From a virus: a DNA stretch of 64,000 bases. How positions within the stretch are numbered: position 1 is the first letter of the stretch; every line of letters begins with the position of its first letter. Position numbers and translations under genes: made by a program. The stretch is from positions 1-64,000 of IMG/VR virus record IMGVR_UViG_3300045016_000140, one strand, 5' to 3'. The notes beneath the pieces are model-generated. The model was not told the origin of the DNA and ran no database searches. It saw only the letters and a list, made by a program, of their open reading frames with translations. Positions 1 to 48,254 of the stretch are shown in pieces.

Positions 1-3
1 GAT

Positions 4-780
4 TTGGCTGGCAACAATGGGTGCCAGGCGATAGTTGCTTCGCCTGATATATTGCCTCAGTTGTTTATAAAGCGTGGCGTTCGTAGGTTTGAGCAGAAGT
101 TTCGGATCATTACTGTTGTTGATTGGCCAAATGGTTTGCAGTTTAGGCAGGATAAGTTCAGGGGTTTGCCAGCGGAGGCGATGGCCGCTGATGGTTTTGA
201 GATCATGATTACCTTGCGCGGCCAGCAGCTTGTGTTGAGTGAGTTGCAGTATTTGTCTGATTTTTTGAAGGCTAATTTTCAGCCGTTATTTGAGTTTCGG
301 GTTGTGCTTGGGATTGGTTTGCCGGGCAGGGGTGATGATTTTATAAGGCATGTGTGCATGGCGATGAAGAGGGTGGCGTTGCCGACGATGGTTAGGACGA
401 CGCATTTGAACACTATCCCGGACGTATCTAACTGGGTTGAGTATAATACAAAGCTGATAAAGAAGATACGGCAGTGGTCGCCAATTCCGATCAAGGTTGG
501 CGGGCATTTTGATTATGGTATTCGCATGAATTGTGTGGCTAATAAGTTTGCCATTCAGGCGCAACATGTGGCGCAATATGTTGCCGTTGTTCAGAGGAAG
601 ATTCAGAAAGAGGGTGCTCAGGCTGTGCTGGCAGCTCCGGTTCCCGCTCCCATTTCTACTCCTGCTCCAGCACCTACTCCTGCCCCAGCCCCAGCCCCTG
701 CTCCAGCACCTACTCCTGCCCCAGCCCCAGCCCCTGCCCCAGCCCCTGCCCCCGTTCGTGAGACCCCTCGTAGGGCATAG
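4..780 (+). CDS. Hypothetical protein with C-terminal Pro-Ala low-complexity tail (probably 5'-truncated by the window edge)
   Basis: 258-aa ORF starting at the window edge; ends in (PA/PT)n repeats. Confidence 0.65.
   Translation: MAGNNGCQAIVASPDILPQLFIKRGVRRFEQKFRIITVVDWPNGLQFRQDKFRGLPAEAMAADGFEIMITLRGQQLVLSELQYLSDFLKANFQPLFEFRVVLGIGLPGRGDDFIRHVCMAMKRVALPTMVRTTHLNTIPDVSNWVEYNTKLIKKIRQWSPIPIKVGGHFDYGIRMNCVANKFAIQAQHVAQYVAVVQRKIQKEGAQAVLAAPVPAPISTPAPAPTPAPAPAPAPAPTPAPAPAPAPAPAPVRETPRRA
634..753 (+). repeat. Pro-Ala coding tandem repeat (cctgcc/ccagcc units)
   Basis: Repeated cctgctccagcacctactcctgccccagcc blocks. Confidence 0.9.
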
Positions 781-782
781 AA

Positions 783-2393
783 TTATATATTAGTTATCCA
801 TCGTATTTTACCTAAATCGTAGATCTTGTGGTATCCTGCTTCTGTGCGTAATTCATGCTCTGTCTTTGATGTTGCTTTCTCGAAATCTTTTTTGCGCATT
901 GTTGATTTATTATATCTAATTGAATTTTTTACCCAATAATAGTCTGGGCGGACTATGCCGTCTTTAGTGAATCCCATCTTTTGATAGACGTTTCCATTGG
1001 AAATTCTGTTGTCGCTGAAAGTTATTAGCTTTCCAGATATGACATTGTTTGTTTTTAGCCAGTTGATTATATATGACCATATGCCATGAATGCGGTATTT
1101 TGTGTTGCACGCCATTCTCGAGATTTCCCAATCGGCCGTGCAATTTTGGCGTATTGGTTTTCGTAGAGACATTGCTGCGATTAAAACATTGTTATAATAA
1201 ATGCCAACGTTATACGAAGAATATGTGATGTTTCCAATATAGTGGTATTGTTTATAGATGGAGTTAGCTTCTCTAGTGCTTATTAGTTTAATTTGGCATT
1301 TTTGCGGCCTGATGTTTATTGCCGCATTAATGTTTAATTTTTGCTTTATCATTGACATGATGATGTCATGCTTCGTTTCCCACTCGTCTGAGAATATATG
1401 TATGTCGGCATCACTATAATTAATGGTATCATTGATGTCGTAGATCGCGGCTTTAAATAGATTGTTTATGGTTATTACGTTATCATTATTGGAGGTTTTT
1501 ATCCCAATTGTGTTTAATTCCTTTGCGAGGTTATGTGATGTGTTGTTCAGATTGTGTAATAAGTTAAGATAGTGCTGTATTTTGTCAATCATTGGGCCGG
1601 AATGTACCCCATTGGGCAATGACAATCGTAATTTTGCTATTTCATAAGCATATATTAGATTTTGTTTCTTGAGCACCATATGATCTAATAAATATGGGGC
1701 GAATTCATTGATTTTATTGGTTAATAAGTTGATTGCATATGTGCGTCTTTTATTGTTAGTGGGTTTATTGCTTAAGTGGGTGTTTACGCCGAAAATTTGT
1801 GACATATATTTTATGGTTGGTAGATTTGTGATGTTTATCGATATGCATGGGCGTTTATTTGGTCTTCGGTTTGGTCCAGTCCTAATGCTTACGTATATTG
1901 ATCCATCGCCGTCTATAAATCCGGCTAACCATGGCCATGTGAATTCATGGTGCCTTGTGTAGTTATCTTCTTGTGCTTTTGGTCCGCGCGCATTGAGTGC
2001 TTTTATTTTGGCGCATATATTATCCCACGCTTGTGACTCTTCAGGGGTGTATGTTGTGTTGTCGCTGTTTTTGATGTTCATTGCGCCCAATAGTAATTGG
2101 GCGTGTGGCTGTTTTGTGTATAGGTAATTGACGATGTTTTTGACGATATATTGTAATTTTTGTTTACTGTAAATGTGGATATGGTAGCTAGTAGATTTGG
2201 CCGCTCCCGATGGTTTTTTGGTCGTTATTTTTTCATTTAGTATTTCACTTATGTAGTTAATGGCATCTAGCGATGTCATACCTATATGTAAATTATATAT
2301 GCGTATGCCGTTTGGCGTTTTGGATATGTGGAAGCTGCCTTCTGCGTCTATTAATCCAGCGAGATACTGCCATTTTTGTGTTTCGCTGCTCAT
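783..2393 (-). CDS. Double-motif LAGLIDADG homing endonuclease fused to a C-terminal Mom-like GNAT domain
   Basis: YLAGLIDAEG and WLAGFIDGDG motifs; C-terminal KQYHYIG...WEISRMA...LITFSDNRISNGNVYQKMGF...PDYYW, homologous to the C-terminus of 19363..21105. Confidence 0.8.
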   Translation of the reverse strand: MSSETQKWQYLAGLIDAEGSFHISKTPNGIRIYNLHIGMTSLDAINYISEILNEKITTKKPSGAAKSTSYHIHIYSKQKLQYIVKNIVNYLYTKQPHAQLLLGAMNIKNSDNTTYTPEESQAWDNICAKIKALNARGPKAQEDNYTRHHEFTWPWLAGFIDGDGSIYVSIRTGPNRRPNKRPCISINITNLPTIKYMSQIFGVNTHLSNKPTNNKRRTYAINLLTNKINEFAPYLLDHMVLKKQNLIYAYEIAKLRLSLPNGVHSGPMIDKIQHYLNLLHNLNNTSHNLAKELNTIGIKTSNNDNVITINNLFKAAIYDINDTINYSDADIHIFSDEWETKHDIIMSMIKQKLNINAAINIRPQKCQIKLISTREANSIYKQYHYIGNITYSSYNVGIYYNNVLIAAMSLRKPIRQNCTADWEISRMACNTKYRIHGIWSYIINWLKTNNVISGKLITFSDNRISNGNVYQKMGFTKDGIVRPDYYWVKNSIRYNKSTMRKKDFEKATSKTEHELRTEAGYHKIYDLGKIRWITNI

Positions 2394-2462: not shown

Positions 2463-3737
2463 ATGCCAGACATTTTCAAGCCAGGTAAGATAACTTTCGT
2501 TCTAGATGGTGGAGCTGGTTCGTCAGGCAAAGGAATAAGGGCCGCCAATATGTGGAAATATCACAGAGCCCCGCTTACTGCTATAGCTATAAATACCTTT
2601 CTTAGTAACGCGGCACACACAATACAACACGCTGATGGTCGTGAATATGTCCATCAATGTCTTTCAAGCGTTACGACGGTTGATGATAAATGGAATTTAC
2701 AATATCTTGGGCCTGGTTGCGGGTTTGCGGTCGACGAGTTTTTGAGGGATGTTGAACAGTCTAATTTGAGCGATGTTTGTAAGAAGAGTCGCATTAAAAT
2801 ACATCCAAATGTATCAATTGTCACCCAGAAGGATATTGATTATGAGAAGGGATTAGTTAATTTCGACGGTGATAAATCCACTGCTCATGATTCTGCGAAT
2901 TTGAGGATTGGTAGCACTCTGCATGGAGTTGGTGCAGCGAGGGCTAGACGCATATTGCGTCGTCCGGATGCTGTAATTGCTAAAAATGTCCCAGAACTGC
3001 AAAGCTACATTCAGGATTGTGGACCGGTGATTATGTCTAGCTTAGATGACGGGTATTCGGCGCTTGGAGAGATTGCTCAAGGATACCAGTTAAGCTTGTA
3101 TAGTAAATTTTACCCGTGCACGACATCTAGGAATTGTTCTGTAATGGCATTTATGGATGACGCTATGTTGCCTTTGAGATTTGCTGGCCCCGTTGTGTTG
3201 AATTTTAGAACTTATCCGATACGTGTCAATGACAATAAATATGTGCGTAAGTCTGATGACAAAATTCTTACGTGGGATGAATATGCGTCAACGCGCGAAG
3301 ATGATAGAAGGATTGTTGTTGGGTACTCTGGCGGGTGTTATCCGGACCAGCAGGAACTTACGTGGGACCAAATTTCTGAGAGTGCTGGTGAGAAGATATT
3401 TGAATGCACTAGTCTTACGAAGCTTCCGCGTAGAGTGTTTTCGTTTTCTCGGCAGAATATGGATGAGGCTATGATATATAATAATACTGGCGATGATATG
3501 TATCTTAGTATTAATTTTATGAATTATGTTGATGCGTCTGTTAAAGGTAAGAGGAATATTATTGATGTATTAACTCCAAAGGTTAGGCGGTGGTTGTGCG
3601 AGAATATATTCTCGCATGGTTTTTATTCATTTTGTGATAATAATCAGATTAATTTCCGTGGTCTATTTATTGGTACTTGGAAGACGATTGATGATAGTGT
3701 ATATGTTGACGCTGAGGTCATACGGCATTTGCTATGA
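2463..3737 (+). CDS. purZ: PurZ-type adenylosuccinate-synthetase homologue (N6-succino-2-amino-dAMP synthetase)
   Basis: GSSGKG (Ser where PurA has Asp in GDEGKG), NAAHT, YLGPG, GST.HG.G, QGYQLS, RTYPIRV, SG.CYPD, TKLPRRVFSFS, and INF.NY in place of PurA TKLD. Confidence 0.8.
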   Translation: MPDIFKPGKITFVLDGGAGSSGKGIRAANMWKYHRAPLTAIAINTFLSNAAHTIQHADGREYVHQCLSSVTTVDDKWNLQYLGPGCGFAVDEFLRDVEQSNLSDVCKKSRIKIHPNVSIVTQKDIDYEKGLVNFDGDKSTAHDSANLRIGSTLHGVGAARARRILRRPDAVIAKNVPELQSYIQDCGPVIMSSLDDGYSALGEIAQGYQLSLYSKFYPCTTSRNCSVMAFMDDAMLPLRFAGPVVLNFRTYPIRVNDNKYVRKSDDKILTWDEYASTREDDRRIVVGYSGGCYPDQQELTWDQISESAGEKIFECTSLTKLPRRVFSFSRQNMDEAMIYNNTGDDMYLSINFMNYVDASVKGKRNIIDVLTPKVRRWLCENIFSHGFYSFCDNNQINFRGLFIGTWKTIDDSVYVDAEVIRHLL

Positions 3738-4189
3738 AAATAATAGTTGCCACTGGTATAATAGCTGGGAAGCCTACGGCAAATGGGAATATATATTCCC
3801 ATAAATTGCTTATGGATCTGATCTCGAAATATAATAGGACTAATAAATATTCACCCAAAAGCGGTAGTTTGATAAATAGGCAGCATATTCAGCAGGTTGG
3901 TGACATTACCCATACTTGTGGGAGGATATTTATGAATGAATCATCTATGTTGTGCGCTGAGATCAATATATCTGATACCCCTGCTGGTAAGGCAATATTG
4001 GATGCGATATCTTCCGGTAGCGAGGTAGTTGGTAGGCCGATTACGAGTCTTCCGGCGTCTGCCATGAGCCAGAAGACTGGCTCGGAGCCGTTCATAGTGC
4101 CACATATTGACAGAATTATTAGGGTACAGCTAGAAATCAAGGAAAATACCACGGGACTCAAAGAAAAGCCTCCGGAAAATACCACTTAA
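3734..4189 (+). CDS. Degenerate T4 gp21-type prohead protease-like protein
   Basis: ANGNIYS, ITHT and DTPAGK motifs resemble gp21; GELDHP and SSRG motifs are absent. Confidence 0.55.
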   Translation: MKIIVATGIIAGKPTANGNIYSHKLLMDLISKYNRTNKYSPKSGSLINRQHIQQVGDITHTCGRIFMNESSMLCAEINISDTPAGKAILDAISSGSEVVGRPITSLPASAMSQKTGSEPFIVPHIDRIIRVQLEIKENTTGLKEKPPENTT

Positions 4190-4846: not shown

Positions 4847-5035
4847 ATGAAATACATTAAAATACGTAAAATGCGGTCTGTTGACAAAGATGTTCTTGGC
4901 GATGTCACCAAGAGGACTACGCCTGACATTTATATTGGTGGTGGTAATGAGTATAAGCAAGCTGGCGTGGCTGGTGGGTTTAAATTAGTTAAGCCTCGCC
5001 AAGGGCACTCAATGAAGGCAAATTTGCGGAGTTGA
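4847..5035 (+). CDS. Small basic hypothetical protein
   Basis: 62 aa; CAAATATA motif 12 nt upstream of ATG. Confidence 0.5.
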   Translation: MKYIKIRKMRSVDKDVLGDVTKRTTPDIYIGGGNEYKQAGVAGGFKLVKPRQGHSMKANLRS

Positions 5036-5921
5036 GTTGCAAATTTTGTGCAGCCAATAGAATTGCATCTATGCAGTTTTCGTGTGGTAGGTGCGTGAAG
5101 TCATTTAGGAATTCGAATTTGTTATACGACGAGCAGAATACATATTTTGAGCGTATTGTACTTGAGAGGTTTTTAGCGGCCCAGTTGTAGTGAAGAGATT
5201 CGCCTCTGAATCTGCGGACTCGTTCTTCATCCTTGACATCTGGGTTGTGTCCCCAGGGATATAGCTTGCCAGAACGGTCTGTGGCCATGTCGCAGCCGAC
5301 GATGTATATTCTTTCGTGCCCTAGCCATAGTCCTATTTGCATGGATGCGTATACTGTTGAACGTCCGACATATATTCCATCGCGCAAGTTTATACTGAAT
5401 CCCTGGCCAGGGATGCTAGTAAGCACTATGCTGTTTTGTTTGAATTTTTTGATGATATTAGTATTGAATAATATGCCGTCTGTGAATTCATCCCAATATT
5501 TTGCCCAGCGTTCTCTCATTTTATCGTCGCAGAATGTCCAATATTTAGTGGGCCATACTCTATCGTCTGGCTTGTTTATCGACATTAGGTCGATGATTTG
5601 CGAGCTTTTGAGTTTCGGTAGATCTATTTCGCCGTGTGATGGTCCATTGCCGATTATTACGAGTATTCTACCAGCTCCGGTGTTGCGCAACCTATCAATG
5701 GCGGTTGGCGCTGGTGGCGGTGGTTCGTATTGTTCGGCTTTGACTCTGTCAACTATGCTTGGGACTTGTCTGGTGCGTTTTGGTTGTGCGGCGATGACGT
5801 TTCGTATGCTGACTGCCTGCGGCGTTGCCCTGGGTATAGGTTTACAGCGTATTGATTGTACGTCGGCCTTTGTGGCTCGTCTAATGGGTCTAATAGGTAT
5901 GTTCGGTATGTATGGCACCAA
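4989..5921 (-). CDS. DUF115/MptE/Maf-like protein (Rossmann-like, often glycosylation-associated)
   Basis: ILVIIGNGPS, LMSIN and IGLWLGHERIYIVGCDM motifs. Confidence 0.7.
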   Translation of the reverse strand: MVPYIPNIPIRPIRRATKADVQSIRCKPIPRATPQAVSIRNVIAAQPKRTRQVPSIVDRVKAEQYEPPPPAPTAIDRLRNTGAGRILVIIGNGPSHGEIDLPKLKSSQIIDLMSINKPDDRVWPTKYWTFCDDKMRERWAKYWDEFTDGILFNTNIIKKFKQNSIVLTSIPGQGFSINLRDGIYVGRSTVYASMQIGLWLGHERIYIVGCDMATDRSGKLYPWGHNPDVKDEERVRRFRGESLHYNWAAKNLSSTIRSKYVFCSSYNKFEFLNDFTHLPHENCIDAILLAAQNLQLNSANLPSLSALGEA

Positions 5922-6546
5922 TTCCTGCCTTTATGACTTCTATGCTTCTGGTGTTTGGGAGTGGGGTTTTATTAATTATAGCTTCTGTAAGTTTGGATTT
6001 ATTTCTGGTTTGTCGAATTTCTTTGCTTTTAATTGTATACATGATTCTGGTTACTGCTGTTGTGACCAAATTGAAAACAGGAGCTCTTCCAGGAGTATAT
6101 TTGAGTTTACCGCGCAGTATCTTAGAAAGGGCGTGCATTAGTGCGTCATGAGCTAGTTCTTTGCGTTCTTCATCAGTTCTTGGGTGGAACTTTGTGGCCA
6201 CTCCATAACATATTAGGAATAACATATTTACTAATTTTTGCCAGGTTTCGTTTACTGGATTGTCGGGATAATATCCTTGCGTGGCCAATGATTTTTCAAG
6301 ATTTTTGTCCTCGTCATACATCGTCGATGTTATGGCCGCCTTTATCATATTGTTCCGGACTATACCGCAGTGTGATTCGAAAAATACGGGATTTTTCGTT
6401 GCTATGCAGTGTGACATATAATTTTCAGATGGCTTTGACCATAACACATTGGTTTGGCGTAAAACTTCGAGTTGTGGGGTGTTGGATGCCGTTATCCACA
6501 TACCCCATAACTCTTCTAGCTCTTTTGTGTTGCAGTATCTAGGCAT
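5890..6546 (-). CDS. T4 gp55-like sigma factor
   Basis: N-terminal YCNTKEL; ICYGVATKF...ELAHDALMHALSK...PGRAPVFNLVTTAVTR...KEIRQ resembles the gp55 region-2 core. Confidence 0.65.
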   Translation of the reverse strand: MPRYCNTKELEELWGMWITASNTPQLEVLRQTNVLWSKPSENYMSHCIATKNPVFFESHCGIVRNNMIKAAITSTMYDEDKNLEKSLATQGYYPDNPVNETWQKLVNMLFLICYGVATKFHPRTDEERKELAHDALMHALSKILRGKLKYTPGRAPVFNLVTTAVTRIMYTIKSKEIRQTRNKSKLTEAIINKTPLPNTRSIEVIKAGIGAIHTEHTY

Positions 6547-6581
6547 ATTTTTTCAATACATTGAGCGCAGTTGGAGTTTAT

Positions 6582-7907
6582 ATGGCAAGGGCAATGCAGC
6601 TTCCAGGATTATATTTGAGAGGATCTATATCTGCTCAGACGATGGCTGGATTGTCATGTGAAGAAGTATCCGTCATTAATGGCATTGTCGGACAGGTCGC
6701 TAATTCTTGTGATTTGGCGGCCGACAAAAATGAATTTACTAAGCAACTGTCATTAACCATAGGTGGTGACTATAAGGATTATGAAGCCGCAGAGGCTGAG
6801 TTCTTTATAGCCATATGGCGCGCAACCATATATCTATTACATCACAGGAATTATACATATATATGTTCAGTGTGCGGAGCCACGGAATATGACACTATAT
6901 CTGGCAAACGGCGTGCAATTGACCAGCAGTTTAAAATTTGTCCGGCATGCAATAAGGCGATGTATAATCGAAATATAGTTAGCATAAAAGAAGAATGTGG
7001 TCAATATAGCATATTATTAAACAATAGTGCAATAATTTCAAACCCCAGCAAAAAAGAAATATGTAATATTTTAACGTCTCCGATTAACCCAATTTATGGC
7101 TCAAAGAAGATTGAAGACCCACAGAAAATCTTAAATGATGCATCTCAGCGCAATAAATGGTATACTGTATGGATATGGAATTATTTTAGACAGATTTTGA
7201 ATGAGAACGCGATAATAACTCATGGCTTGCAGCAATGTAGCGTGTCTGGCTTGGCTGATAGAATCGCATATGACGTCATTGTGAACCAGCTAATAAAAGA
7301 AAAATATAAGTTTTATGTTGACATGGCAGCGGTTGATTCTTGCAAGTACGAAATATGTTTAAACATATATTCCACCAAACCGGAATTCTCATATTTTTTG
7401 ATGTCGATGATTAAAGAATATAAAGCATACGGCGTTGACATTATTGTCGATGACACATGCATACAAGTCAAAGGGCATGAGGATATGCCAATCATTGATG
7501 CGGTCATATCCATCGACAGTGAGGTTAATACAATTAGCATTGACGGCCCAACGTCGACTAACATAGATTATAATGATGACAATTGGGGGGATGCGGTTGA
7601 ATCAAATGTCGTCAATTTTGAAGAACACGATGGCATCGAAGATTACGTGTCCAATGAAGTGATGAATTGCGTTAGAAATCATTTGCCAGATGATAAGACA
7701 AAAGCGGTTTTTGACATTTTGAGCCAGAGCGGTAAGAATTGGGTTGAATTTTCTCGTCTATGGGGCGGCACCGTTCCTAGTAAAGCTCATATGGCTAAGT
7801 TTTTGGGCGTATCCATGGACGCAATCGACGTATATAAAGGCATTATTGCTGATCAGTGTATTGCCAATGATATGGTCAATGGCGACGTTAATATCCATGC
7901 CCGATGA
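6582..7907 (+). CDS. Putative sigma-70-like protein with Zn-ribbon insertion and C-terminal HTH
   Basis: GGAG SD before ATG 6582; EAEFFIAIWRA region-2-like helix; CSVC...CPAC; C-terminal LPDDKTKAVFDI...SKAHMAKFLGVSMDAI region-4-like HTH. Confidence 0.45.
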   Translation: MARAMQLPGLYLRGSISAQTMAGLSCEEVSVINGIVGQVANSCDLAADKNEFTKQLSLTIGGDYKDYEAAEAEFFIAIWRATIYLLHHRNYTYICSVCGATEYDTISGKRRAIDQQFKICPACNKAMYNRNIVSIKEECGQYSILLNNSAIISNPSKKEICNILTSPINPIYGSKKIEDPQKILNDASQRNKWYTVWIWNYFRQILNENAIITHGLQQCSVSGLADRIAYDVIVNQLIKEKYKFYVDMAAVDSCKYEICLNIYSTKPEFSYFLMSMIKEYKAYGVDIIVDDTCIQVKGHEDMPIIDAVISIDSEVNTISIDGPTSTNIDYNDDNWGDAVESNVVNFEEHDGIEDYVSNEVMNCVRNHLPDDKTKAVFDILSQSGKNWVEFSRLWGGTVPSKAHMAKFLGVSMDAIDVYKGIIADQCIANDMVNGDVNIHAR

Positions 7908-8442
7908 TTTGACCCATCTTGTTCATTTTATTCTTGCGGAAGAACGTCGGCCCCATTCCGGTTGTTGTTGGCACTCGTGGTGCTGGCGTTAGGGCTTGGT
8001 CGATGAATCTAAGCTGCCCGGCTTCTGATTCGCTTAGCGTCCTTAATATGAAAGTGATGATTTCGCGTGGCGTCGCTTCGTTTGCGCTGTGACCTCCGTC
8101 CGTCGGCATCAGTGAGCCATATTTAGCTTCTCGCAGGTCGTTTAAGCTGTTATGCTCCGTGCTTCCGAGGAATTTGCGCAAATTGCCGAGCACGAACATA
8201 TGCCAGTCAATTTTGACGTATCCCGTGCGGGGGTCTATGTCTGCTATGGCCGGGCCAACTTCTACTGTCCCGTGTAATTGGGGAATTGCTTCTGTGATAT
8301 TCTGCAGGGATGGTGGGTATACTCCTTTGTCGAAGTTCTCTGTGGCTCCGATTTGCTCAACGAAATACTTGATAAGTAATCTTTTGGTGATTTCTTTGTT
8401 GAGGTGGCTGCGAATTTTATTGACTAGCGTTTTGTCCATCAT
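7888..8442 (-). CDS. Hypothetical protein
   Basis: 184-aa ORF preceded by CAAATATA on the minus strand. Confidence 0.65.
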   Translation of the reverse strand: MMDKTLVNKIRSHLNKEITKRLLIKYFVEQIGATENFDKGVYPPSLQNITEAIPQLHGTVEVGPAIADIDPRTGYVKIDWHMFVLGNLRKFLGSTEHNSLNDLREAKYGSLMPTDGGHSANEATPREIITFILRTLSESEAGQLRFIDQALTPAPRVPTTTGMGPTFFRKNKMNKMGQIIGHGY

Positions 8443-8460
8443 AATATATTTGCTGGTGCT

Positions 8461-8466
8461 GTATTT
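8461..8466 (+). promoter_or_regulatory. Example of recurrent GTATT(T) putative promoter (gp47)
   Basis: Recurs 13-15 nt before the ATG of gp47, primase, gp55-like and the ORFs at 19363 and 50719. Confidence 0.45.
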
Positions 8467-8474
8467 GATACCAT

Positions 8475-9557
8475 ATGCGACTATGTATATCAGCTGACGC
8501 CCATGTCGGTGTTAATGGGAAATTGAAGGATATTATGTGGGCCATGTCGAAAATTCGCCAGTATAATCATGAGCGCGATATAGATACATGGTTTATGCTT
8601 GGCGATTTGATGCATGATAGGGAGTCGGTCGGCACTAGTGAGCTATATGCTCTGACGCAATTTTTGGATGATACTGACATAAAGTATGGTCAGCAGATGC
8701 ATGTTCTTGTTGGTAACCATGACATGTATTTGAAGAATTCATGGGAAATTAATAGTTTGAGGCCATTGTCGAGGCATATTAAGGTATATGATAGCGTTCA
8801 GAGCGTCAGCATTGATGGGCGTAGAATATGGATTTTGCCTTTCATTTATTATGAAAATGAGTATATGGCTCGTCTGGCAGAGATTGAGTCTAACATATCA
8901 AAGGATGATATATTGTTTACGCATATTGGTGTGCGCGGCGCTAAATTCAACGCATGTTTTTTATTACAATCGTGGTCCACCGTTGATTTTGCTCAAAGCG
9001 CTTTCCAGCGAGTGTTAGCCGGGCACTTCCATTGTCATCAAGAAGTTGGGCGTGTGACGTATCCAGGGAGCATTATACCGTATAAATTCGATGAGGGTGA
9101 TGTTGATCATGGTTTTCTAATTTTAGACACTGATACGCTTAAGTGTGATTTTGTGAGCATTTGGGATGGTGTGAAGCCTGGTGAGTATAGGCCTCCACAA
9201 TATTTGACGTTTGATAGTGATGATTTGTCTGATTTGTCATTGGTTAATGGGAATGTCATTAGGATTCTGACGAGCAAGGAATATATTACGCAAAATAAGC
9301 TTATGGAGATTAGGCAGTCAGTGATTGATGCTGGAGCGGTTGATGTTAGATGGATGCATATTGCAACTAAAGATGATGTGCAGTCTATCGAAATGGCTAA
9401 GATGGCCACGTCGAAAGCTTCCGAGCTATTTGAAAGATATATGAATGCCGACAAGAGCGCTAAGGAATTAAATTCTTCGCTTCTTCTGAAAATGAATTCT
9501 GAGATTGTGGCCGAGGGCGATAGACTGTATGAAGTTCAGGAGGATGTAAGTGTTTGA
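8475..9557 (+). CDS. Mre11/SbcD-like recombination nuclease (T4 gp47-like)
   Basis: ADAH, LGDLMH, VGNHD and AGHFH metallophosphoesterase motifs; directly upstream of Rad50-like gene. Confidence 0.92.
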   Translation: MRLCISADAHVGVNGKLKDIMWAMSKIRQYNHERDIDTWFMLGDLMHDRESVGTSELYALTQFLDDTDIKYGQQMHVLVGNHDMYLKNSWEINSLRPLSRHIKVYDSVQSVSIDGRRIWILPFIYYENEYMARLAEIESNISKDDILFTHIGVRGAKFNACFLLQSWSTVDFAQSAFQRVLAGHFHCHQEVGRVTYPGSIIPYKFDEGDVDHGFLILDTDTLKCDFVSIWDGVKPGEYRPPQYLTFDSDDLSDLSLVNGNVIRILTSKEYITQNKLMEIRQSVIDAGAVDVRWMHIATKDDVQSIEMAKMATSKASELFERYMNADKSAKELNSSLLLKMNSEIVAEGDRLYEVQEDVSV

Positions 9558-11328
9558 TTTGAAGTCAGTTAAGTTTAGAAATTTTCTATCGTATGGTGAT
9601 TATGATACTGAACTCGCTCTCGATAACGCTGGGCAATGCCTTATCATAGGGGAGGTGATTGATGGCCCAGGGGATGCCGCCGAGACGAGCAATGGGTCTG
9701 GGAAGTCGTCTATGTTTCAAGCCATATTATGGTGCTTGTTTGGCCGCACAATGCATGCTGATAGGCAGGCTGGCGATGATGTGGTTAACTGGTTCACCAA
9801 GAAAGATTGTATAGTTGAATTGGAATTTAAGAATGGCGACAAGCTTACGAGGACTAGGAAAGTTGATGGGCATAGCGATCTTCTGTTAATTAAAGATGGT
9901 CATGACGTGTCGCTCGGTACGAATACGATGCAGCAGAAAGTTCTGAATAAGGAGCTTGGTCTAGATTGGGACATATTCTGTGGTTCAGTATTCTTTTCCC
10001 AATTTGGTAAGCCATGGATGGAGATGTCTGATCAGAAGCGCAAGGAGGCGATGGAACGTGAATTTCATCTGGATAGGATTATGTTGTATGCTGACGTGGC
10101 TAAGGCTAAAAAGCAGAAAATAGAAAATGAGCATGTTTTGGCTAGGGGTCAAATTAATGCCAGCCAGATATCCATCGATGATTTGCAAAAGCAGATCGAT
10201 AAGCTACAAGTTCTATTTAATGGTTTCGAAAACAATAAGATTGAAAAGATAAATGCCGCCGTTGAGATATTAAATGGATTGAAATCCACGGGCATTAAGA
10301 TATACGACATTGATGCCTTGAAAACCAAATGGGATGTGGTTAAAAAGATAATGTCAATGGTGGAGTCTAAGCGCTCTGAATTGTATGCCATGAAGTTGAA
10401 AGTTGGCGAAGTTAATGGTAAAATTAATCATTTTACAGCGCTGATAAATGATTGGGTCAAGAAGGATGGCAAAATATGCCTGTCGTGTGGCCAGCAGATT
10501 AATAAACAATATGTTGAATCGAAAATCCAGAATCCGAAGGCCATGATTGATGCTTTAAACATTGAGCTTGCTAAGTATGAGAGTGACATGTCGGCCATTG
10601 AAAATTCAATAAGTGAGGTTGATAGGGCTCTCGATGGTAAAATTCCGTCGGTGACGTCAGAACAGGCGGAAAAGCATAACAAGGAATGCAATGCGAGACT
10701 CGAGCAGATTAAGAATCAGGAATCTGTTATCGCTAAGATTAAGGCCGAGGTGAATGAGTATGGGAAGCTAATAGATGAGTTAAACGTCAAATTATCTAGC
10801 AATCAGCAGAAGCATGCCCAGTTGCTTGATAGAATTCGTAAGTTGGACACCATATTAGAACACATTAATTACATTTATAGTGCATATAGCGATAGGCGTA
10901 AAATTAAGAGTTATATGCTCCAGGAGTATATTCCATATTTTAACGATAGGTTATCATATTATATGGATAGATTCGAGCTTGATTTGAGGATTGAGTTTAC
11001 GAATGCTTTGACTGCACAGTCTAATTTGTGGGGGTATAATTGGTTTAGTGGTGGTGAGCGCAAAAGGTTTGACGTCGCAATGATGTTTGCCATGTTTGAC
11101 GTTCATTCGGTTATGTATGGGCGGCAATGCAACATAATTGTTCTGGACGAGGTTGACGGGCACATAGACCCGCGCGCTTCTAAGCTATTTGCCAACATCA
11201 TAAGAGATGATTTTTCGGGTAAGGTTGATTCTGTGTTCGTGATTAGTCAGAGGCGTGACATGCGTGGAGCGTTTCCAGCCGAACTTAAGGTGCGTAGAGA
11301 TGGTCGACAGTCGCACATTGTTTACTGA
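9550..11328 (+). CDS. Rad50/SbcC-like ATPase (T4 gp46-like)
   Basis: FRNFLSYG, Walker A NGSGKS, zinc hook CLSC, signature FSGGE, Walker B IVLDE. Confidence 0.93.
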   Translation: MFDLKSVKFRNFLSYGDYDTELALDNAGQCLIIGEVIDGPGDAAETSNGSGKSSMFQAILWCLFGRTMHADRQAGDDVVNWFTKKDCIVELEFKNGDKLTRTRKVDGHSDLLLIKDGHDVSLGTNTMQQKVLNKELGLDWDIFCGSVFFSQFGKPWMEMSDQKRKEAMEREFHLDRIMLYADVAKAKKQKIENEHVLARGQINASQISIDDLQKQIDKLQVLFNGFENNKIEKINAAVEILNGLKSTGIKIYDIDALKTKWDVVKKIMSMVESKRSELYAMKLKVGEVNGKINHFTALINDWVKKDGKICLSCGQQINKQYVESKIQNPKAMIDALNIELAKYESDMSAIENSISEVDRALDGKIPSVTSEQAEKHNKECNARLEQIKNQESVIAKIKAEVNEYGKLIDELNVKLSSNQQKHAQLLDRIRKLDTILEHINYIYSAYSDRRKIKSYMLQEYIPYFNDRLSYYMDRFELDLRIEFTNALTAQSNLWGYNWFSGGERKRFDVAMMFAMFDVHSVMYGRQCNIIVLDEVDGHIDPRASKLFANIIRDDFSGKVDSVFVISQRRDMRGAFPAELKVRRDGRQSHIVY

Positions 11329-25141: not shown

Positions 25142-25732
25142 ATGCCAGGCTTTTCAATCAATGGCATCAATGATGCTAATTATGCTAGTGGCGAATCGAC
25201 TATGACGAATAAGGTTGAGCCACGGCGTACACATAGGTGGTATTTTGAAACTATTGGTCTGTCTCCTGGTAATGTTGTGTCTTTACGTGGTGTGTCTGCA
25301 TGGGATAAGAGCATTCAGGTTGTATTGAAATCAGCTGCCAGGCCTTCATTTACGCTTGAAGAGACTGTGATGCATCACAATCAGGAGCAAGTGTATTTTG
25401 CCGGTAAGCAGTCATGGGATGCCATTACGCTTACGTGGTATGATATTGAGCAGCCGCCCGATGTCAGCAAGGCTATGTGGTATTGGATTAATAGCATTAC
25501 CAATATTAATGCTGTTCAGGTGCATTTGCCATCGCTTTATAAGATTGACGCTCGATTAGCTATGGTCACTGGTGAAGGCGCGGTCAACGAGCGATGGAAT
25601 TTGTATGGTTCCTGGCCTCAGACATCGAACTGGCAGGCTTTGGACTACACGAATAATGAGATTCAGACGATTGAGGTTAAGCTGCGGTATGATCGTGCTG
25701 AACGCGATCAGACCGTTGGCGTTTCCAAGTAA
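25142..25732 (+). CDS. Tail tube protein (gp19-like)
   Basis: EPRRTHRW, AARPSF, FAGKQSWDAIT.T.YD, W.LYGSWP, LDY, LRYDRA; AAGGAG SD. Confidence 0.9.
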   Translation: MPGFSINGINDANYASGESTMTNKVEPRRTHRWYFETIGLSPGNVVSLRGVSAWDKSIQVVLKSAARPSFTLEETVMHHNQEQVYFAGKQSWDAITLTWYDIEQPPDVSKAMWYWINSITNINAVQVHLPSLYKIDARLAMVTGEGAVNERWNLYGSWPQTSNWQALDYTNNEIQTIEVKLRYDRAERDQTVGVSK

Positions 25733-25734
25733 AT

Positions 25735-26442
25735 ATGCCCGGTTTTAGCATAACTAATGACGAGATAGATAAAGGTCCGTCTAACCGTACGGAAATTGTT
25801 AGATCGCACCGATGGCGCATCACTATATTTGGGTTGTCAACTGAATCTCTCGTTAACGATATGTTTAGCTTCTTTGTGCAATCAGTGACTAGACCATCAT
25901 TTGAGTTAGATAAAATTGTAGTGCATCAACAGCAGCAAGAAATATATCTTCCTGGCAAGGTCAGATGGAGCCCTATAACAATAAAATATTATGAGCCCAT
26001 GTATAATGCTGGCCTAGCTAATGTTAACCAAACTTCTAGTGGATGCCCTTTGACTGGTACGTTGAGTACTTGGTTTGACAAGATAGTGAATGGTTATAAT
26101 TATATTTTACAGCGGAACAAAAAGAGCATAGACATAGTTGGTGGTGGGTATAAGAAACATGTTAGAGTTGATTTGCTAGATGGCGAGGGTGACAGTTATT
26201 ATTATTATAAGTTATTTGGCGCATGGCCCATTAAGATTGAGCCGTCAGAATTAAATTATACGAGCAGTGAATTATCAAGCGTTGTTGTCACTTTATCATA
26301 TGATTGGGCCATTGAATGGTCGATTAAGCCTGAAAATCCTAGGTCAACGTGGTCAATACATGAAACTGTAAAAAATAAGGAAGTTGAGGATTTGATTGAA
26401 GTTGAGCATCAGCGGAATATAGCTAATTTTACTGCTTTTTGA
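25735..26442 (+). CDS. Tail tube-like paralogue 2
   Basis: MPGF.I start, RPSF, PGKVRWSPITIKYYE, LFGAWP, LNY, LSYDWA. Confidence 0.8.
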   Translation: MPGFSITNDEIDKGPSNRTEIVRSHRWRITIFGLSTESLVNDMFSFFVQSVTRPSFELDKIVVHQQQQEIYLPGKVRWSPITIKYYEPMYNAGLANVNQTSSGCPLTGTLSTWFDKIVNGYNYILQRNKKSIDIVGGGYKKHVRVDLLDGEGDSYYYYKLFGAWPIKIEPSELNYTSSELSSVVVTLSYDWAIEWSIKPENPRSTWSIHETVKNKEVEDLIEVEHQRNIANFTAF

Positions 26443-26449
26443 GGTGTTT

Positions 26450-27142
26450 ATGCCAGGGTTTCATATAGGTACTGATAGGGATATACCTCACGGCCCAGCC
26501 AATTTTGGCGATGGCATGCGCGATTGGCGATTGATGCCGCCTTTGACCGAAGGATATGACGCCATATATACATATACATGGGATGTGTCACAAATACCAT
26601 TTGATGTCAGTACGGCCAGTAATCAACAAACAATGAATATGGATATGTTGCGTAAGGTTTATCTTAGAGATTGTACATTGCCAGAGTATACCATTGACGA
26701 GGAAATTTATCAATCACCAAGTACTAAATATAAGTATGCTAAGGGTATAACATGGTCAGATGTGAAGATAACATATTATGATACGTTTGGATTATATTTA
26801 TATTTGGATAATTTAAAAAGTAAAGTTTGGACTCCGGCATATGGCGTCAAACCAGCGGTTGAATATAAATTTGAATCCGTCATTAATGTCTATATAGCGG
26901 ATGCAATTGAAGCTTTTAGGTGGACGTTAGTAAATAGCTGGGTAAAGTCTATATCGTGGGCTGATTTAACATATGTTAGCAGCGACATGCATATGGTAAC
27001 CATAACATTGGCATATGATTGGGCCATATTAACTGGCGATAATGGTATACCATCCGCAACACCAGCAACGGCATTAACGCCGGTGGTGGTTCCGCCAATG
27101 GCAATTCCGCCGCGAACCAGGCAGGTTCCTACGATGTTTTAG
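26450..27142 (+). CDS. Tail tube-like paralogue 3
   Basis: MPGF.I start, TLPEY, WSDVKITYYD, LAYDWA. Confidence 0.75.
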   Translation: MPGFHIGTDRDIPHGPANFGDGMRDWRLMPPLTEGYDAIYTYTWDVSQIPFDVSTASNQQTMNMDMLRKVYLRDCTLPEYTIDEEIYQSPSTKYKYAKGITWSDVKITYYDTFGLYLYLDNLKSKVWTPAYGVKPAVEYKFESVINVYIADAIEAFRWTLVNSWVKSISWADLTYVSSDMHMVTITLAYDWAILTGDNGIPSATPATALTPVVVPPMAIPPRTRQVPTMF

Positions 27143-36037: not shown

Positions 36038-38252
36038 CCCAGCCCTCAACAATATCTGGAATTCATTCGTAGAGAACCGAAACCAAAGGATAACCAATCG
36101 GTTCCCGGGTATGTATCGCGCAATTGTGGTGGAGACTAATGATCCACTACAAATGCACCGTGTGCGGTTCAAATGTCCAGAACTGCATGATTATAATACT
36201 AAAACGGAAGATTGTCCATGGGCCGTTCCCGCCAATGATCTTGGCACCAAAAGATGTGGAAGATGGTCATACCCATGCATAGGCGACTGGGTGTGGATAC
36301 AATTTGAGAAAAATCATCCATATGGTCCGGTTTGGACTGGATTTGCTGACCCAACAAGGCGTAAATTCTATACACTGCCATCCATAAGCGGCCCGACGCC
36401 ACGACCAGTGGATGCGCAAGGTACGCCATTGGATGAATCACCGGATGATTATGATGTAGACTATCTTCCGGCCGACGGGCGGCCGATGTCTCACGGTTGG
36501 CAGGATAGATATGGCAATCTTGATATGCATAATTCAGTTGGGTTCTTCCCGATTGAGCATGCGGCTTCACCGCCAAGGAATCTAGATACTGACAATATAG
36601 GCGGTAACTCTAACGCTAGATTTGTGCAGCAAGAGAATGCTCCAGTTGCAAATAACCCGGATTCTAAATATATGTTGAGGATGACCAAGTACGGCCATAT
36701 GGTATTGCAGTCCGACTCCGGGTATTTGTGGCAGAATGAATTCAAAGGTGATTTTGAGCAGGATGAAACGTTTGAGATAAATAGATGGAAATATTATCAA
36801 AGATTAATTCATGAGGATAAACCGTCTGGACATGATGAACGAAGATTGATGTTGTTAACTAGATATGGTCACAAATTTGAATTAAGGGATGTTGGGTGGA
36901 ATATATCTCGCAGTGGTGAATTTGGTCCCTCTGTCTCGCTGTCCAGCGGTGCCAAAGATCAACGGTGGATAAAGTTAAGGTCTAAGGGTGGGCATTTAAT
37001 TGAACTATGTGACATTGGATCTGATCCGATGAATGATGAATATGTTCAAAGAAGCCTAATGGATGAGTTAGATGGAACTAAGATATATATGCGATTATCA
37101 GATAGAGCAATATTGACGGAAGATGAGTATAATAATACTCCGGCCAATAATCGTGAGATGATTGTTGTTGGGGATAAAGAGGAAAAGTTTGAATCTGACG
37201 CCAGGTTTATTAGGATGGTGACCAGGTCGGGCATTAAAATGGCGATAGATGACAGAGGCAGCGACAGCACAAAAGCGCAAGATAAGAATTTGGAGAATGA
37301 TAAGATTGGCACTGGTGTGCTCATTAAAGGCAGGGCCACACCGGCTGGTAGAATACTTGATTCAGATGGCGTCCATACTGAGAATTCATATCCTAATAAA
37401 TCTGGCGATCCGGTTGGATATTATTGGCAAATAAATGAACATTCCGATTATAATTGCACTGATTGGGGAAGTCCGCTTGGGCAAGTTATTGAAATGAACG
37501 ACAATGATGAGGTACTAACAATTTGCACTGGGCTTGTTGATTTGCCATCTAAGTGGGAGGGTCTGGAAGATAATGAATTTTTGCTATATACTGCCAATGC
37601 AATGGAACCAATGGCCAATACCCATCATTTAGTGTTGAATCATCGCAATGAATTCATAAGATTAAAGTCTAGGGCTGGCCATGGCGCAGCTCCATATGCC
37701 ACCGATAAAACGCCAGTTGATGGTGAATTCCAGGGTTTGGAAATTCATGACAGTGCGGCGTCACCATGGGTTGAATTAGTTGATTATCAGCACCGTGGGC
37801 TATGGTTTAGCGGGCAATATGGCATCGGTGTGTTAAGGGCGAAGGCCGACAAGGATATAATTATATGGTATGATGATACCAATGACAAGATAGTGATTAG
37901 GAATAATACTGACAATGGACGCGTCCAGATATATTGTGCTGGGAATGTCGATATAGTTAGCGATAAGGATGTCAATATATCTGCGGCTAACGATGTGAAT
38001 ATCCAGGCTGGTGGTAGTGTTAGATTGAAGGCTAGCGCCTTGTCGGGTGATCCGGGTTTGGCTACGTTAAATGCGTTGTCTTTCGACACTAATCGTGATG
38101 TTATGGGTATGTCTATTCTTGGGTTTTTCCCGCAGATAAATAATGGTGATGGCGGTCCTCCTGGTTGGGCATGCGGTAATGGTGAGGATATGGAGAATGT
38201 GGATGTTGAATCAGTTCCAGACGTCGTTGAGCCTGATGATAGAGCTACATAA
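36027..38252 (+). CDS. Baseplate central spike (gp5/VgrG, OB-fold); probable ACG start at 36027, first ATG at 36111
   Basis: YRAIVVETNDP..RVRFKCPELH...CPWA.P...P.IGDWVWIQFE...P.W.G; repeated T..GH beta motifs; AAGGAGG SD 9 nt before the in-frame ACG. Confidence 0.85.
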   Translation, partial: TSSDPALNNIWNSFVENRNQRITNRFPGMYRAIVVETNDPLQMHRVRFKCPELHDYNTKTEDCPWAVPANDLGTKRCGRWSYPCIGDWVWIQFEKNHPYGPVWTGFADPTRRKFYTLPSISGPTPRPVDAQGTPLDESPDDYDVDYLPADGRPMSHGWQDRYGNLDMHNSVGFFPIEHAASPPRNLDTDNIGGNSNARFVQQENAPVANNPDSKYMLRMTKYGHMVLQSDSGYLWQNEFKGDFEQDETFEINRWKYYQRLIHEDKPSGHDERRLMLLTRYGHKFELRDVGWNISRSGEFGPSVSLSSGAKDQRWIKLRSKGGHLIELCDIGSDPMNDEYVQRSLMDELDGTKIYMRLSDRAILTEDEYNNTPANNREMIVVGDKEEKFESDARFIRMVTRSGIKMAIDDRGSDSTKAQDKNLENDKIGTGVLIKGRATPAGRILDSDGVHTENSYPNKSGDPVGYYWQINEHSDYNCTDWGSPLGQVIEMNDNDEVLTICTGLVDLPSKWEGLEDNEFLLYTANAMEPMANTHHLVLNHRNEFIRLKSRAGHGAAPYATDKTPVDGEFQGLEIHDSAASPWVELVDYQHRGLWFSGQYGIGVLRAKADKDIIIWYDDTNDKIVIRNNTDNGRVQIYCAGNVDIVSDKDVNISAANDVNIQAGGSVRLKASALSGDPGLATLNALSFDTNRDVMGMSILGFFPQINNGDGGPPGWACGNGEDMENVDVESVPDVVEPDDRAT

Positions 38253-39996: not shown

Positions 39997-41917
39997 GACA
40001 GCAACACTATTTCAGTTGCCAGTTGACCCGGAGCAGTTCGGCGTCCTGCTGCCGCCAGCTGAATTGCGTAAGATAGACTTCTCGGCTCTTGAGTTTTCAA
40101 CTGCTCGCCGGGCCGTCATCGAGTATATTAAAACATACTATAAGGATGATTTTAACGATTTTGTGAGCAATAACGGCGTGATAATGTTGGTTGAATTATT
40201 GTCATATCTCACTGCTTTAATGTCGATGCGCGCTGATGTGCTATCCAATGAGGCGTTTCTGCCAACTGCCCAGAGTGAGAATGCGATAGTTAACCATCTG
40301 GCCTTGATTAGCCAGAAGATCCGGCGAGCTACACCCGCTTCGATTGACATGGAATATAGTGTAGTCACGCAGATAGATGCTGACATTAATATTCCGGCTG
40401 GGTTAACATATCAGGTTCGCGGCGAGGATGGTGTTAACATAAAGTATGAAGTATATCGCGCACCTGGTGATTTTACATCTCCCATTACTATACCAGCTGG
40501 TAAAACGGGCGTTATTGCCCATGGGCTTGAAGGCACTACTAAGACGTATACGGTCAAATCTGATGGGTCTGCCAATCAGCGCATTGTCATGGTTGGTAAT
40601 GACATATTGGAAGAACCGATTACTATACTCGTTAAAATTGGCAATATAACATATACATGGGATAGAGTGGATTTTATAGAGACAGCTGGGCCGACCGATA
40701 AATCTTATGAAGCAAGATTCTTTCAGGATGAGCTTGACATAGTGTTTGGTAATGGGACGTATGGTGCAATTCCAGACAATAATTCAACGATTACTGTGCG
40801 ATATCGTACTGGCGGTGGAACGCGTGGTAAGATAGGTTCTGGCGTGATCGATGAAACCAGACCAATCATTCCAGCATACCCATATACTGCTCCAGTGCAA
40901 GTGCGTGCGCGTAATATAAGCGCTAGCATTGGCGGAACGGATAAGGAAACTCTCGAGGAAGCCAAGGTGCGTGCTCCGCGAGATTTTGCCACCAGGGATT
41001 CCGCCGTTACTGCACTAGATTATGCACATATTATAAGTTCATTTTCCCATCCAGTATTTGGATCGGTCAGCAAGTCGCTAGCTACCATCAGGACGTCTTT
41101 GAACACCAATAGGGTGGAATTGTACGTGCTGGCCTCCGGCACTGACGATGTGCCGGTTGCACCGACCGCTGGATTGAAGAAAGCCATTGAGACATATCTT
41201 GGTGGATTGAATGTTATGACCGACCAAGTCGTGGCCTATGACGGTCTATTAAAACCAATTGATGTAAAGATGACGGTCGTTATCGCCAGGAACGCGGATG
41301 CTTCGAGTGTGAAAGTTAAAGTAGCTAATGCTATAGATTCATTTTTCAATATATCTAAATGGGATATGGGCACACCATTATATGTTTCTCAATTGTATGA
41401 GTTGATACAGGCGATAGATGGCATAGTCTATTTGAACATTGATTTACCTAAAGACAATGTTGTGCAGGTCGATGCAGTTGTTAGTCGTTATAGTGTGTCT
41501 GGCAATATTATTGACATCACCCCTTATAATGCCACCGTCGGTGAGCAGATAATTCTTGTCATTCAGGGTATAGATGGGGGTGGGGGTGGCAGCGGGAGTG
41601 GTAGCGGTAGTGGTAGTGGTAGTGGTAGTGGTAGTGGTAGTGGGACTAGTGGTGGGCCATATACTCTGTTAGTTAATGTTGTTACGCCGAGCGACATAGC
41701 GTCCGACGTGGTTAGAGCGTGGAGTACCGACCCAGTGTTGCGGTCGATACCAATTACTGGTTATGTGATGTACGCCAGAGTGGAATCGAGTGTTAGCCTA
41801 ACTATTTCCTCGAATAGCAATGCTATGGTTTTCTTGCCATATAAGGTTGGCAAGAATGAATTGATCATACCTGGTAATATTCAGCAGCAGTATTATTATG
41901 AGAAACAGCAGCGTTAA
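39989..41917 (+). CDS. Baseplate wedge protein (gp6/GpJ-like)
   Basis: IDFSALEF, NEAFLPTAQ, FGNGTYG.IP, Y.TGGG..G, GG.DKETLEE...AP, AVTALDY. Confidence 0.9.
   Translation: MAETATLFQLPVDPEQFGVLLPPAELRKIDFSALEFSTARRAVIEYIKTYYKDDFNDFVSNNGVIMLVELLSYLTALMSMRADVLSNEAFLPTAQSENAIVNHLALISQKIRRATPASIDMEYSVVTQIDADINIPAGLTYQVRGEDGVNIKYEVYRAPGDFTSPITIPAGKTGVIAHGLEGTTKTYTVKSDGSANQRIVMVGNDILEEPITILVKIGNITYTWDRVDFIETAGPTDKSYEARFFQDELDIVFGNGTYGAIPDNNSTITVRYRTGGGTRGKIGSGVIDETRPIIPAYPYTAPVQVRARNISASIGGTDKETLEEAKVRAPRDFATRDSAVTALDYAHIISSFSHPVFGSVSKSLATIRTSLNTNRVELYVLASGTDDVPVAPTAGLKKAIETYLGGLNVMTDQVVAYDGLLKPIDVKMTVVIARNADASSVKVKVANAIDSFFNISKWDMGTPLYVSQLYELIQAIDGIVYLNIDLPKDNVVQVDAVVSRYSVSGNIIDITPYNATVGEQIILVIQGIDGGGGGSGSGSGSGSGSGSGSGSGTSGGPYTLLVNVVTPSDIASDVVRAWSTDPVLRSIPITGYVMYARVESSVSLTISSNSNAMVFLPYKVGKNELIIPGNIQQQYYYEKQQR
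41576..41656 (+). repeat. Gly-Ser linker microsatellite (ggtagt)n
   Basis: Directly visible. Confidence 0.9.
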
Positions 41918-48229: not shown

Positions 48230-48254
48230 TGTTAAATATATCAAATATAACAAT

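Follow-up and report, generated by a model that had tools for sequence, protein, structure and literature searches.

We analysed the first 64 kb of a linear 74,669-bp IMG/VR record (IMGVR_UViG_3300045016_000140), a stretch of 64,000 nucleotides referred to here as the window. Near its left end lies a gene of the PurZ family, whose members are linked to phage DNA that carries 2-aminoadenine (Z) instead of adenine. The open reading frame (ORF) is open throughout, encodes 424 amino acids (aa) and shares the ATGA of its stop with the start of the next gene. CheckV rates the record as 20% complete, which implies a whole genome of ~370 kb, and the phage genome is 58% A+T. PHROG scans of the record detected the gene set of a T4-like contractile-tailed myovirus: gp47/gp46-type SbcD/SbcC, tail sheath, three tail-tube paralogues, baseplate hub and wedge, primase, helicase, large terminase, portal and major head protein. 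A preliminary description, made from the sequence alone, had placed a PurZ-type enzyme in a large T4-like myophage here; motifs and trees bear out the enzyme class, and the PHROG gene set and CheckV estimate the phage. The features on which the analysis turns are the following.

2463..3737, plus strand: long-form PurZ (succino-amino-deoxyadenylate / deoxyguanylosuccinate synthase homologue), 424 aa; assigned from family matches, motifs, structure model and trees
3231..3317, plus strand: clade-specific 29-aa insert of PurZ, residues 257-285, which follows PIRV immediately and lies where S-2L has its short PurZ-specific loop
4..780, plus strand: DERA-fold (deoxyribose-5-phosphate-aldolase-like) TIM-barrel gene, member of a ~240-aa family, cut by the contig start

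The PurZ-type protein and its clade

All motifs listed in the preliminary description occur in the translation of 2463-3737: GSSGKG (residues 19-24), RTYPIRV (249-255), SG.CYPD as SGGCYPD (289-295), TKLPRRVFSFS (319-329) and INF.NY as INFMNY (350-355). For comparison, 141 sequences were aligned: the window protein, 20 members of its clade, 108 representatives taken from an exhaustive HMMER search, six reference PurZ, three PurZ0, ORF141 of phage MaF61 and two PurA. The contrasts between PurA and PurZ that had been stated beforehand (Asp to Ser, GRxRR to KLPRR, TKLD to NF) hold in this alignment. Ser20 occupies the Asp13 site of the window protein (GSSGKG; GDEGKG in E. coli PurA, GSTGKG in phiVC8); Ser is found there in every non-PurA row of the tree set, and S20 is invariant in a 32-sequence alignment (A1). 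KLPRR replaces the GRxRR of PurA (TTGRRRR in E. coli), reference PurZ having TK(K/L)xRR and NFxNY. In the donor pocket, INFMNY of the window protein stands opposite LNFCNY in phiVC8, TKLD in PurA and T-M/S-F..D in PurZ0. The N-F-x-N pocket (N351-F-x-N354) is of the type with which phiVC8 PurZ binds adenine, and not of the PurZ0 or PurA pattern. Further aligned residues are H52, Q206, T221-S-R-N, R254-V255 and T316-S-L-T-K-L-P-R-R.

The contacts of S-2L PurZ to dGMP, triphosphate and aspartate have been described as Y21-G22-S23, N49-A50, H52-T53, G130-S131-T132, R146, Q190, T205, R240-V241, T273-T276, R280 and N305-F306 (PMC8342488). In a profile alignment these map to S20, N49, A50, H52, T53, G150-S-T152, R166/167, Q206, T221, R254, V255, T316-T319 and R323 of the window protein. 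The changes at the mapped sites are G51 to Ala and TTVT to TSLT.

Pfam Adenylsucc_synt (PF00709) matched the protein weakly (E 1.3e-11), PHROG 1211 ('2-aminooxy adenylosuccinate synthetase') with E 4.8e-33, and the PurZ model NF038379 with E 5.4e-46 and 157.1 bits, which makes it the top-scoring NCBIfam model, though under its cut-off. PurA models reached 23-97 bits against cut-offs of 368-445; TIGR00184 (44 bits, cut-off 396) and NF003295 (97 bits, cut-off 368) both fail. Among the sequences of solved structures, phiVC8 PurZ (6fm1, E 1e-29) was followed by S-2L PurZ (7odx, 1.5e-19), archaeal PurA (9e-15) and PurZ0 (8e-6). These family matches are far beyond chance. An AlphaFold model built from 32 homologues (pLDDT 87.6) has the same fold as phiVC8 PurZ (DgsS; PDB 6FM1/6FKO/6TNH) and S-2L PurZ (7ODX). 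Its top PDB match is phiVC8 PurZ with dGMP and an ATP analogue (6tnh; E 1.5e-25, TM by target 0.82), with archaeal PurA ranking behind and bacterial PurA far behind.

Two trees rooted on the two PurA sequences were calculated, one with FastTree from 138 rows, the other from 74 with IQ-TREE in quick mode; P0151, P0155 and P0253, being truncated or frameshifted, were kept out, as was any representative not within 320-480 aa. The three PurZ0 references branch first in both trees (support 100), PurA is set apart from the window protein (support 100), and the long-insert clade containing the window protein (support 99) is nested in the remaining ATP-type PurZ group (support 88-96). The comparison with PurA, PurZ and PurZ0 by phylogeny and profile models, suggested earlier as a check, places the protein in the PurZ radiation. 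The marks of PurZ0, namely a GSEAKG P-loop, a different donor pocket and the basal position, are all missing from it.

With phiVC8 and S-2L PurZ the window protein has in common the Ser at the Asp13 site, the N-F-x-N ATP pocket, the dGMP and aspartate contacts and the place in the ATP-type radiation. Identity to them is only 26-29%, however, and the window protein is ~60-80 aa longer, with the 29-aa insert and a longer C-terminus; it reads TSRN and TSLT where they have TSRD/E and TTVT. The gene is located in the late/structural region of a jumbo myovirus, whereas purZ of phiVC8 and S-2L lies by datZ, mazZ or dpoZ in 40-kb podo- or siphovirus genomes. PurA (E. coli; Pyrococcus horikoshii, 5K7X) has the same superfamily and fold, as well as the P-loop, His41, Gln224 and the RR motif. 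As PurB-like genes occur in relatives, the protein belongs to PF00709 and the MaF61 homologue was annotated as adenylosuccinate synthetase by its depositors, one might think of an auxiliary metabolic gene of the ordinary PurA type, working with PurB to raise the synthesis of AMP from IMP. We regard this as very improbable, since Asp13 is replaced by Ser, the GTP-binding TKLD by NFxNY and GRxRR by KLPRR, PurA models score far below their cut-offs and PurA is the outgroup of the tree. On motifs, contact residues, structure match and tree position, the window protein is a predicted PurZ-type enzyme and not PurA.

A word-indexed search returned 421 homologues of the window protein, most of them ~400-450 aa long and encoded on contigs of up to 384,762 bp; identity was 41-62% among the 120 listed. 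Proteins of the long-form clade have a length of ~415 aa. The gene recurs in lake-water metagenomes (14 runs); no RNA dataset is among the sequencing runs listed for it, and megablast against 50,697 phage records gave zero matches. The sole cultured-phage relative in the long-insert clade is ORF141 of Flavobacterium phage MaF61 (PQ858689), a 167.8-kb lake-water myovirus (33% identity, E 3e-65). ORF141 lies among head genes like the window purZ, and a purB-like gene is present in MaF61 as well; the purZ-type gene is not discussed in the MaF61 paper.

The insert after PIRV measures 26-33 aa in the window subclade and 60-91 aa in the MaF61 sister subclade, compared with 0-9 aa in reference PurZ (0 in three PurZ0) and 1 in PurA. 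K259 never varies in alignment A1, and N256, N258, Y260 and L269 hardly do; the insert is modelled as strand-helix-strand (pLDDT 80-90). The short loop of S-2L PurZ is said to press Val241 against the sugar C2', and the residue pair together with the loop to exclude ribonucleotides (PMC8342488). An insert of 26-91 aa at this sugar-discriminating loop might have changed the substrate or product (dIMP, GMP or another purine nucleotide), and the enzyme would then serve salvage or another modification pathway instead of Z synthesis. The score under the curated PurZ cut-off would fit such a change, as would partner genes unlike those of proven Z-phages and a DERA-fold partner mostly without the canonical Schiff-base Lys. 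All base, phosphate and aspartate contact residues of S-2L and phiVC8 PurZ are conserved, however, and the clade is nested among ordinary PurZ sequences, which makes a changed substrate improbable in our view. Judged by itself, dGMP-dependent PurZ activity of the window protein seems quite probable.

Several observations on the insert and on purZ homologues stand apart from this. The insert (window 3240-3320) resembles a stretch of a gp5-like baseplate spike (37086-37172, in ORF 36111-38252) by BLASTP (13 of 27 residues, 28 bits, E 8e-4 for the single pair); we rejected the likeness as not robust once the ~80 ORFs of the record are counted. By hand, with one gap allowed, 16 of 29 residues agree. 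Interrupted PurZ homologues exist in the clade, among them P0121 and others of 750-820 aa, and L125:14669-16846. In P0121 the enzyme is split by LAGLIDADG_2 and intein-splicing domains at its middle, and further long representatives align in two separate stretches. It appears that purZ of this clade has repeatedly taken up inteins or endonuclease insertions. The lone match in 185,579 species genomes was on a 441-kb contig of a Pirellulales metagenome-assembled genome bin (L105, CAVTYW010000027.1; 40% identity, residues 4-273 only); the contig may come from a jumbo phage and have been placed in a bacterial bin, or the gene may be interrupted.

Genes associated with purZ

ORFs were clustered from 31 related loci, window included. 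This revealed a conserved block upstream of purZ, consisting of a ~200-aa gene (11 loci) and then a ~240-aa gene (14 of 31 loci), which adjoin in most. The ~240-aa family includes the ORF at window 4-780; it lies within the 10-kb flanks of purZ in its 14 loci, mostly at a distance of up to 2.3 kb. Using an exact 35-base pattern from the window start we found a 7,127-bp JGI metagenome contig (L136) that is 100% identical to window 1-550 and reaches 4,951 bases upstream of the window start. It contains the full ORF (L136:4880-5695, 271 aa), whose start is 72 nt before window base 1. The structure model of the orthologue from L028 is a TIM-barrel (pLDDT 88.7). Foldseek returned E 4e-11, and all listed PDB hits are DERA-titled except an 'aldolase' (1mzh) and two designed Kemp eliminases. 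VIA-align against 48,161 chains gave six DERA structures at the top (Z 19.6-20.9), the next fold following at Z 16.1. At the sequence level no link to DeoC is significant: hhalign to E. coli DeoC gave E 0.078, there was no Pfam match, a profile search of PDB returned nothing, and the Atlas nothing named. The model predicts a DERA TIM-barrel fold for this partner. Homologues were sought with residues 1-190, because the Pro-Ala tail swamps the matches to window 4-777; this gave two distant matches and no full-length exact copy. The Pro-Ala repeat tail (window 600-780; L136:5560-5695) varies in length between samples: one lake-water contig lacks 36 bases at 660-697, and the L136 tail is shorter.

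From the synteny of the relatives, a gene of the ~200-aa family, which is nucleoside-deoxyribosyltransferase (NDT)-like, was expected upstream of the window, and it was found on L136. The gene (L136:4218-4835, 205 aa) lies 44 bp upstream of the DERA-like gene in divergent orientation. Its product matches the profile of the NDT-like family (A3) with an hhalign probability of 99.9 and E 4.9e-31, and has no Pfam match of its own at E 0.01. The L028 orthologue scores above the Pfam cut-offs of PF15891 (35.6 vs 30 bits) and PF05014 (30.1 vs 28.8 bits). Y10, D96 and E112/E113 are conserved in the family and correspond to the catalytic triad Tyr / Asp(Asn) / Glu described for DmtZ (PMC12884076). A profile scan detected the NDT-like gene in 16 viral loci; in all 16 a DERA-like gene is adjacent and purZ is ~1-6 kb from the NDT-like gene, including purZ versions only 29-32% identical to window PurZ at the protein level. 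Further upstream, in L136:1-3940, a calcineurin-like metallophosphoesterase is encoded (weak PF12850), which could be one more enzyme acting on the nucleotide pool; a family 2 glycosyltransferase and a VWA-domain protein are encoded there too.

A close parallel to this cassette is the PurZ0 + DutZ + DmtZ set of Arthrobacter phage Wayne and Gordonia phages (PMC12884076), which likewise has an NDT-superfamily partner and no DatZ. The NDT-like partner and the Wayne DmtZ domain share a DG-x-PS-W motif, and profile A3 matches the NDT-like N-domain of the Wayne DmtZ-DutZ fusion weakly (E 7.6e-4, probability 25). DutZ and DmtZ are fused in the PurZ0 system, whereas no dUTPase-like fusion was seen in the window cassette. 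A DERA-fold partner is not reported there (PMC12884076), 'aldolase' occurring only as an assay reagent.

The preliminary description had seen purZ without companion genes. This stands for datZ, mazZ and dpoZ, which were not found in the 74.7-kb record; the search of the rest of the contig, as had been proposed, yielded no YfbR-like (DatZ-type) or other HD gene, and neither MazG nor PurB, Pol A or an adenosine deaminase (no search of any record was made for DUF550, PF04447). It does not stand for the locus as such, which has the DERA-fold gene at 4-780 and the NDT-like gene next to it. The apparent absence of companions is partly an artefact, because the record covers only ~20% of the genome and starts inside a partner gene.

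Related phages with longer sequences were examined for the same families. Two relatives are complete with terminal repeats (G001, 320 kb; G002, 341 kb) and a third is 91% complete (G003). All three have an NDT-like gene and an adenosine-deaminase-family (A_deaminase) gene (123-138 bits), and none has a YfbR-like HD gene (PF12917). PurB-like genes are present in 6 of 14 related records, among them G011, whose PurZ is 61% identical to window PurZ. MazG was found in three of five records (G002, G011, MaF61), Pol A fragments in G001 and G002, and a family B polymerase in MaF61. The MaF61 subclade differs from the window subclade also in that it has no NDT-like gene and instead an HD_3/YfbR-like HD protein. 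Other HD proteins (G001, G003, G005, G007, G008) were considered as DatZ equivalents and rejected; the one scanned, from G001, is HD_4 (RelA/SpoT-like). The jumbo contigs G004 (307 kb) and G005 (251 kb) encode PurZ only 30% identical to window PurZ. At ~234-237 kb of G004 (IMG/VR contig, locus L043) a YfbR-like HD (DatZ-type) gene lies ~1.4 kb from purZ, which suggests that classical Z-clusters also occur in jumbo phages.

A putative route to Z-DNA

Proven Z-genomes in the literature belong to small sipho- or podoviruses with a datZ/mazZ/dpoZ set, or have the PurZ0/DutZ/DmtZ set. Together, the data lead us to favour, with moderate confidence, an active PurZ and an NDT-like/DERA-fold cassette that make Z-DNA in jumbo T4-like freshwater phages. 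The clade would carry a three-gene cassette of NDT-like gene, DERA-fold gene and purZ. Window PurZ would most likely condense dGMP and aspartate, using ATP or dATP, to N6-succino-2-amino-2'-deoxyadenylate (dSMP). An adenylosuccinate lyase, either the host's or, as in several relatives, the phage's own, would act on this together with kinases to give dZTP, which the phage replisome would put opposite T. Since the Tyr/Asp/Glu triad is kept and the protein resembles the DmtZ domain of PurZ0 phages, the NDT-like protein would probably remove adenine at the dAMP level, yielding adenine and deoxyribose-5-phosphate, or transfer the sugar phosphate to Z; removal at the dAMP level has been shown for DmtZ of PurZ0 phages (PMC12884076). 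The DERA-fold protein would probably handle the deoxyribose-5-phosphate, and the adenosine-deaminase-family enzymes of the three near-complete relatives may drain adenine compounds further. In this way these genes would take the place that DatZ and MazZ have in small Z-phages.

A more specific version of this route is no more than tentative. It holds that adenine is fully replaced: a DmtZ-like dAMP N-glycosidase/transferase, a DERA-fold enzyme without Schiff-base Lys and an adenosine-deaminase-family enzyme would replace DatZ/MazZ, and the long-form PurZ, adapted by its insert, would supply dZMP.

Several points weigh against Z-DNA synthesis by this cassette. The first concerns the partner with the DERA fold. 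Class I DERA enzymes form the Schiff base with a Lys on strand 6 (K167 in E. coli), and strand 7 carries a further Lys (K201). The strands of the DERA-like proteins were assigned by their order in the model and with the family alignment. Strand 7, so placed, keeps P-I-K-x-S/G-G; at strand 6 most members have I/V-R-T, and Lys is found only in L016 and L017. With Arg at the presumed Schiff-base position, a role as DERA-fold aldolase is doubtful. Second, the score of window PurZ with NF038379 misses the curated cut-off of 300 bits, whereas phiVC8 PurZ reaches 397.2, and the backbone of the PurZ radiation has only moderate support (86-96). Third, the insert with its invariant Lys sits beside R254/V255, at the site said to exclude ribonucleotides in S-2L, which means that substrate choice could differ. 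Fourth, no DatZ-type (YfbR-like) HD gene is present in the complete relatives G001 and G002. A fifth point is the following gene:

41868-42659, minus strand: adenine-specific DNA methyltransferase (beta-class, CcrM/PRK11524-like)

An encoded adenine-specific methyltransferase fits adenine-containing DNA better. Methylation of Z is possible in vitro, though (PMC8342488); in a genome with full Z substitution the methyltransferase would have to act on Z, or on host DNA. Finally, homology, contact residues, fold, tree position and synteny are what we observe, and from these we infer substrates, products, partner roles and Z in the virion.

The missing DatZ-type dATPase, in the contig and in the complete relatives, and the methyltransferase would also agree with an active PurZ in a phage that keeps its adenine. 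Surplus dGMP would then be turned into dZTP and give mixed A/Z DNA, most polymerases not discriminating A from Z (PMC8342488), or the enzyme would merely rebalance the purine pool for a genome of 58% A+T. We consider this rather unlikely: the linkage of the NDT-like gene to purZ in 16 of 16 loci and the adenosine-deaminase-family genes in three of three near-complete relatives point to active removal of adenine compounds, as postulated for Z-DNA synthesis by the cassette.

Giant phages, judging from their sequences, probably make Z-DNA by a partly different route. In a full-text literature search we found no paper discussing PurZ in myoviruses or jumbo phages. NDT enzymes have already been linked to Z-phages (PMC12884076; bioRxiv 10.1101/2025.10.22.683976), and a DERA-fold partner is mentioned in neither report. 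If the cassette works as proposed, Z-DNA would extend to giant contractile-tailed phages (>400 sequences, phages of 100-385 kb, recurring in lake water), and there would be a third way of excluding adenine. This would bear on the evolution of the pathway and on how such phages evade restriction systems. New enzymes for Z-DNA synthesis would be gained as well: the long-form PurZ, a further, second lineage of enzymes resembling DmtZ, and the unusual DERA-fold protein. With MaF61 a relative is in culture whose nucleosides can be analysed directly.

Other neighbours of purZ and observations in the window

Two further genes flank purZ:

783..2393, minus strand: LAGLIDADG homing endonuclease gene, 536 aa (Pfam LAGLIDADG_1 and LAGLIDADG_3; PHROG 3339 and 559)
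3734..4189, plus strand: small prohead-protease-like gene (T4 gp21 / Peptidase_S77 fold); its start overlaps the purZ stop

The gene between the DERA-like gene and purZ had been described as a LAGLIDADG-Mom gene. Its LAGLIDADG domains were found by Pfam; the 'Mom' label could not be confirmed. The C-terminal ~200 aa have no Pfam or NCBIfam match; in PHROG they align with the corresponding C-terminal regions of 3339 and 559 ('homing/HNH endonuclease'). At the same position the closest relatives (L028, L007) have ~1.1 kb without a match to the window ORF. The gene is a mobile insertion outside the pathway.

The downstream gene had been called protease-like, in agreement with our Atlas structure search, which gave TM 0.71-0.72 to Peptidase_S77 clusters; there is no Pfam or PHROG match. 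It is found downstream of purZ in six loci and is a neighbour from the structural module, not a nucleotide enzyme. Its T4 gp21-type fold puts the window purZ at the border of the head genes, where the MaF61 gene lies too.

The block from an MptE-like gene to the gp47-adjacent gene (window 4989-11328; L028:1011-7361) is inverted relative to the closest relatives; it lies downstream of purZ in the window and upstream of the NDT-like gene in the relatives. The three tail-tube paralogues stand in a row at 25142-27142, each matching PHROG 4542. Two ORFs at 47702-50650 correspond to the two halves of PHROG 34187 (profile residues 243-403 and 5-194). Between them is a radical-SAM gene and one more ORF follows, an arrangement that looks like a split-enzyme cassette.

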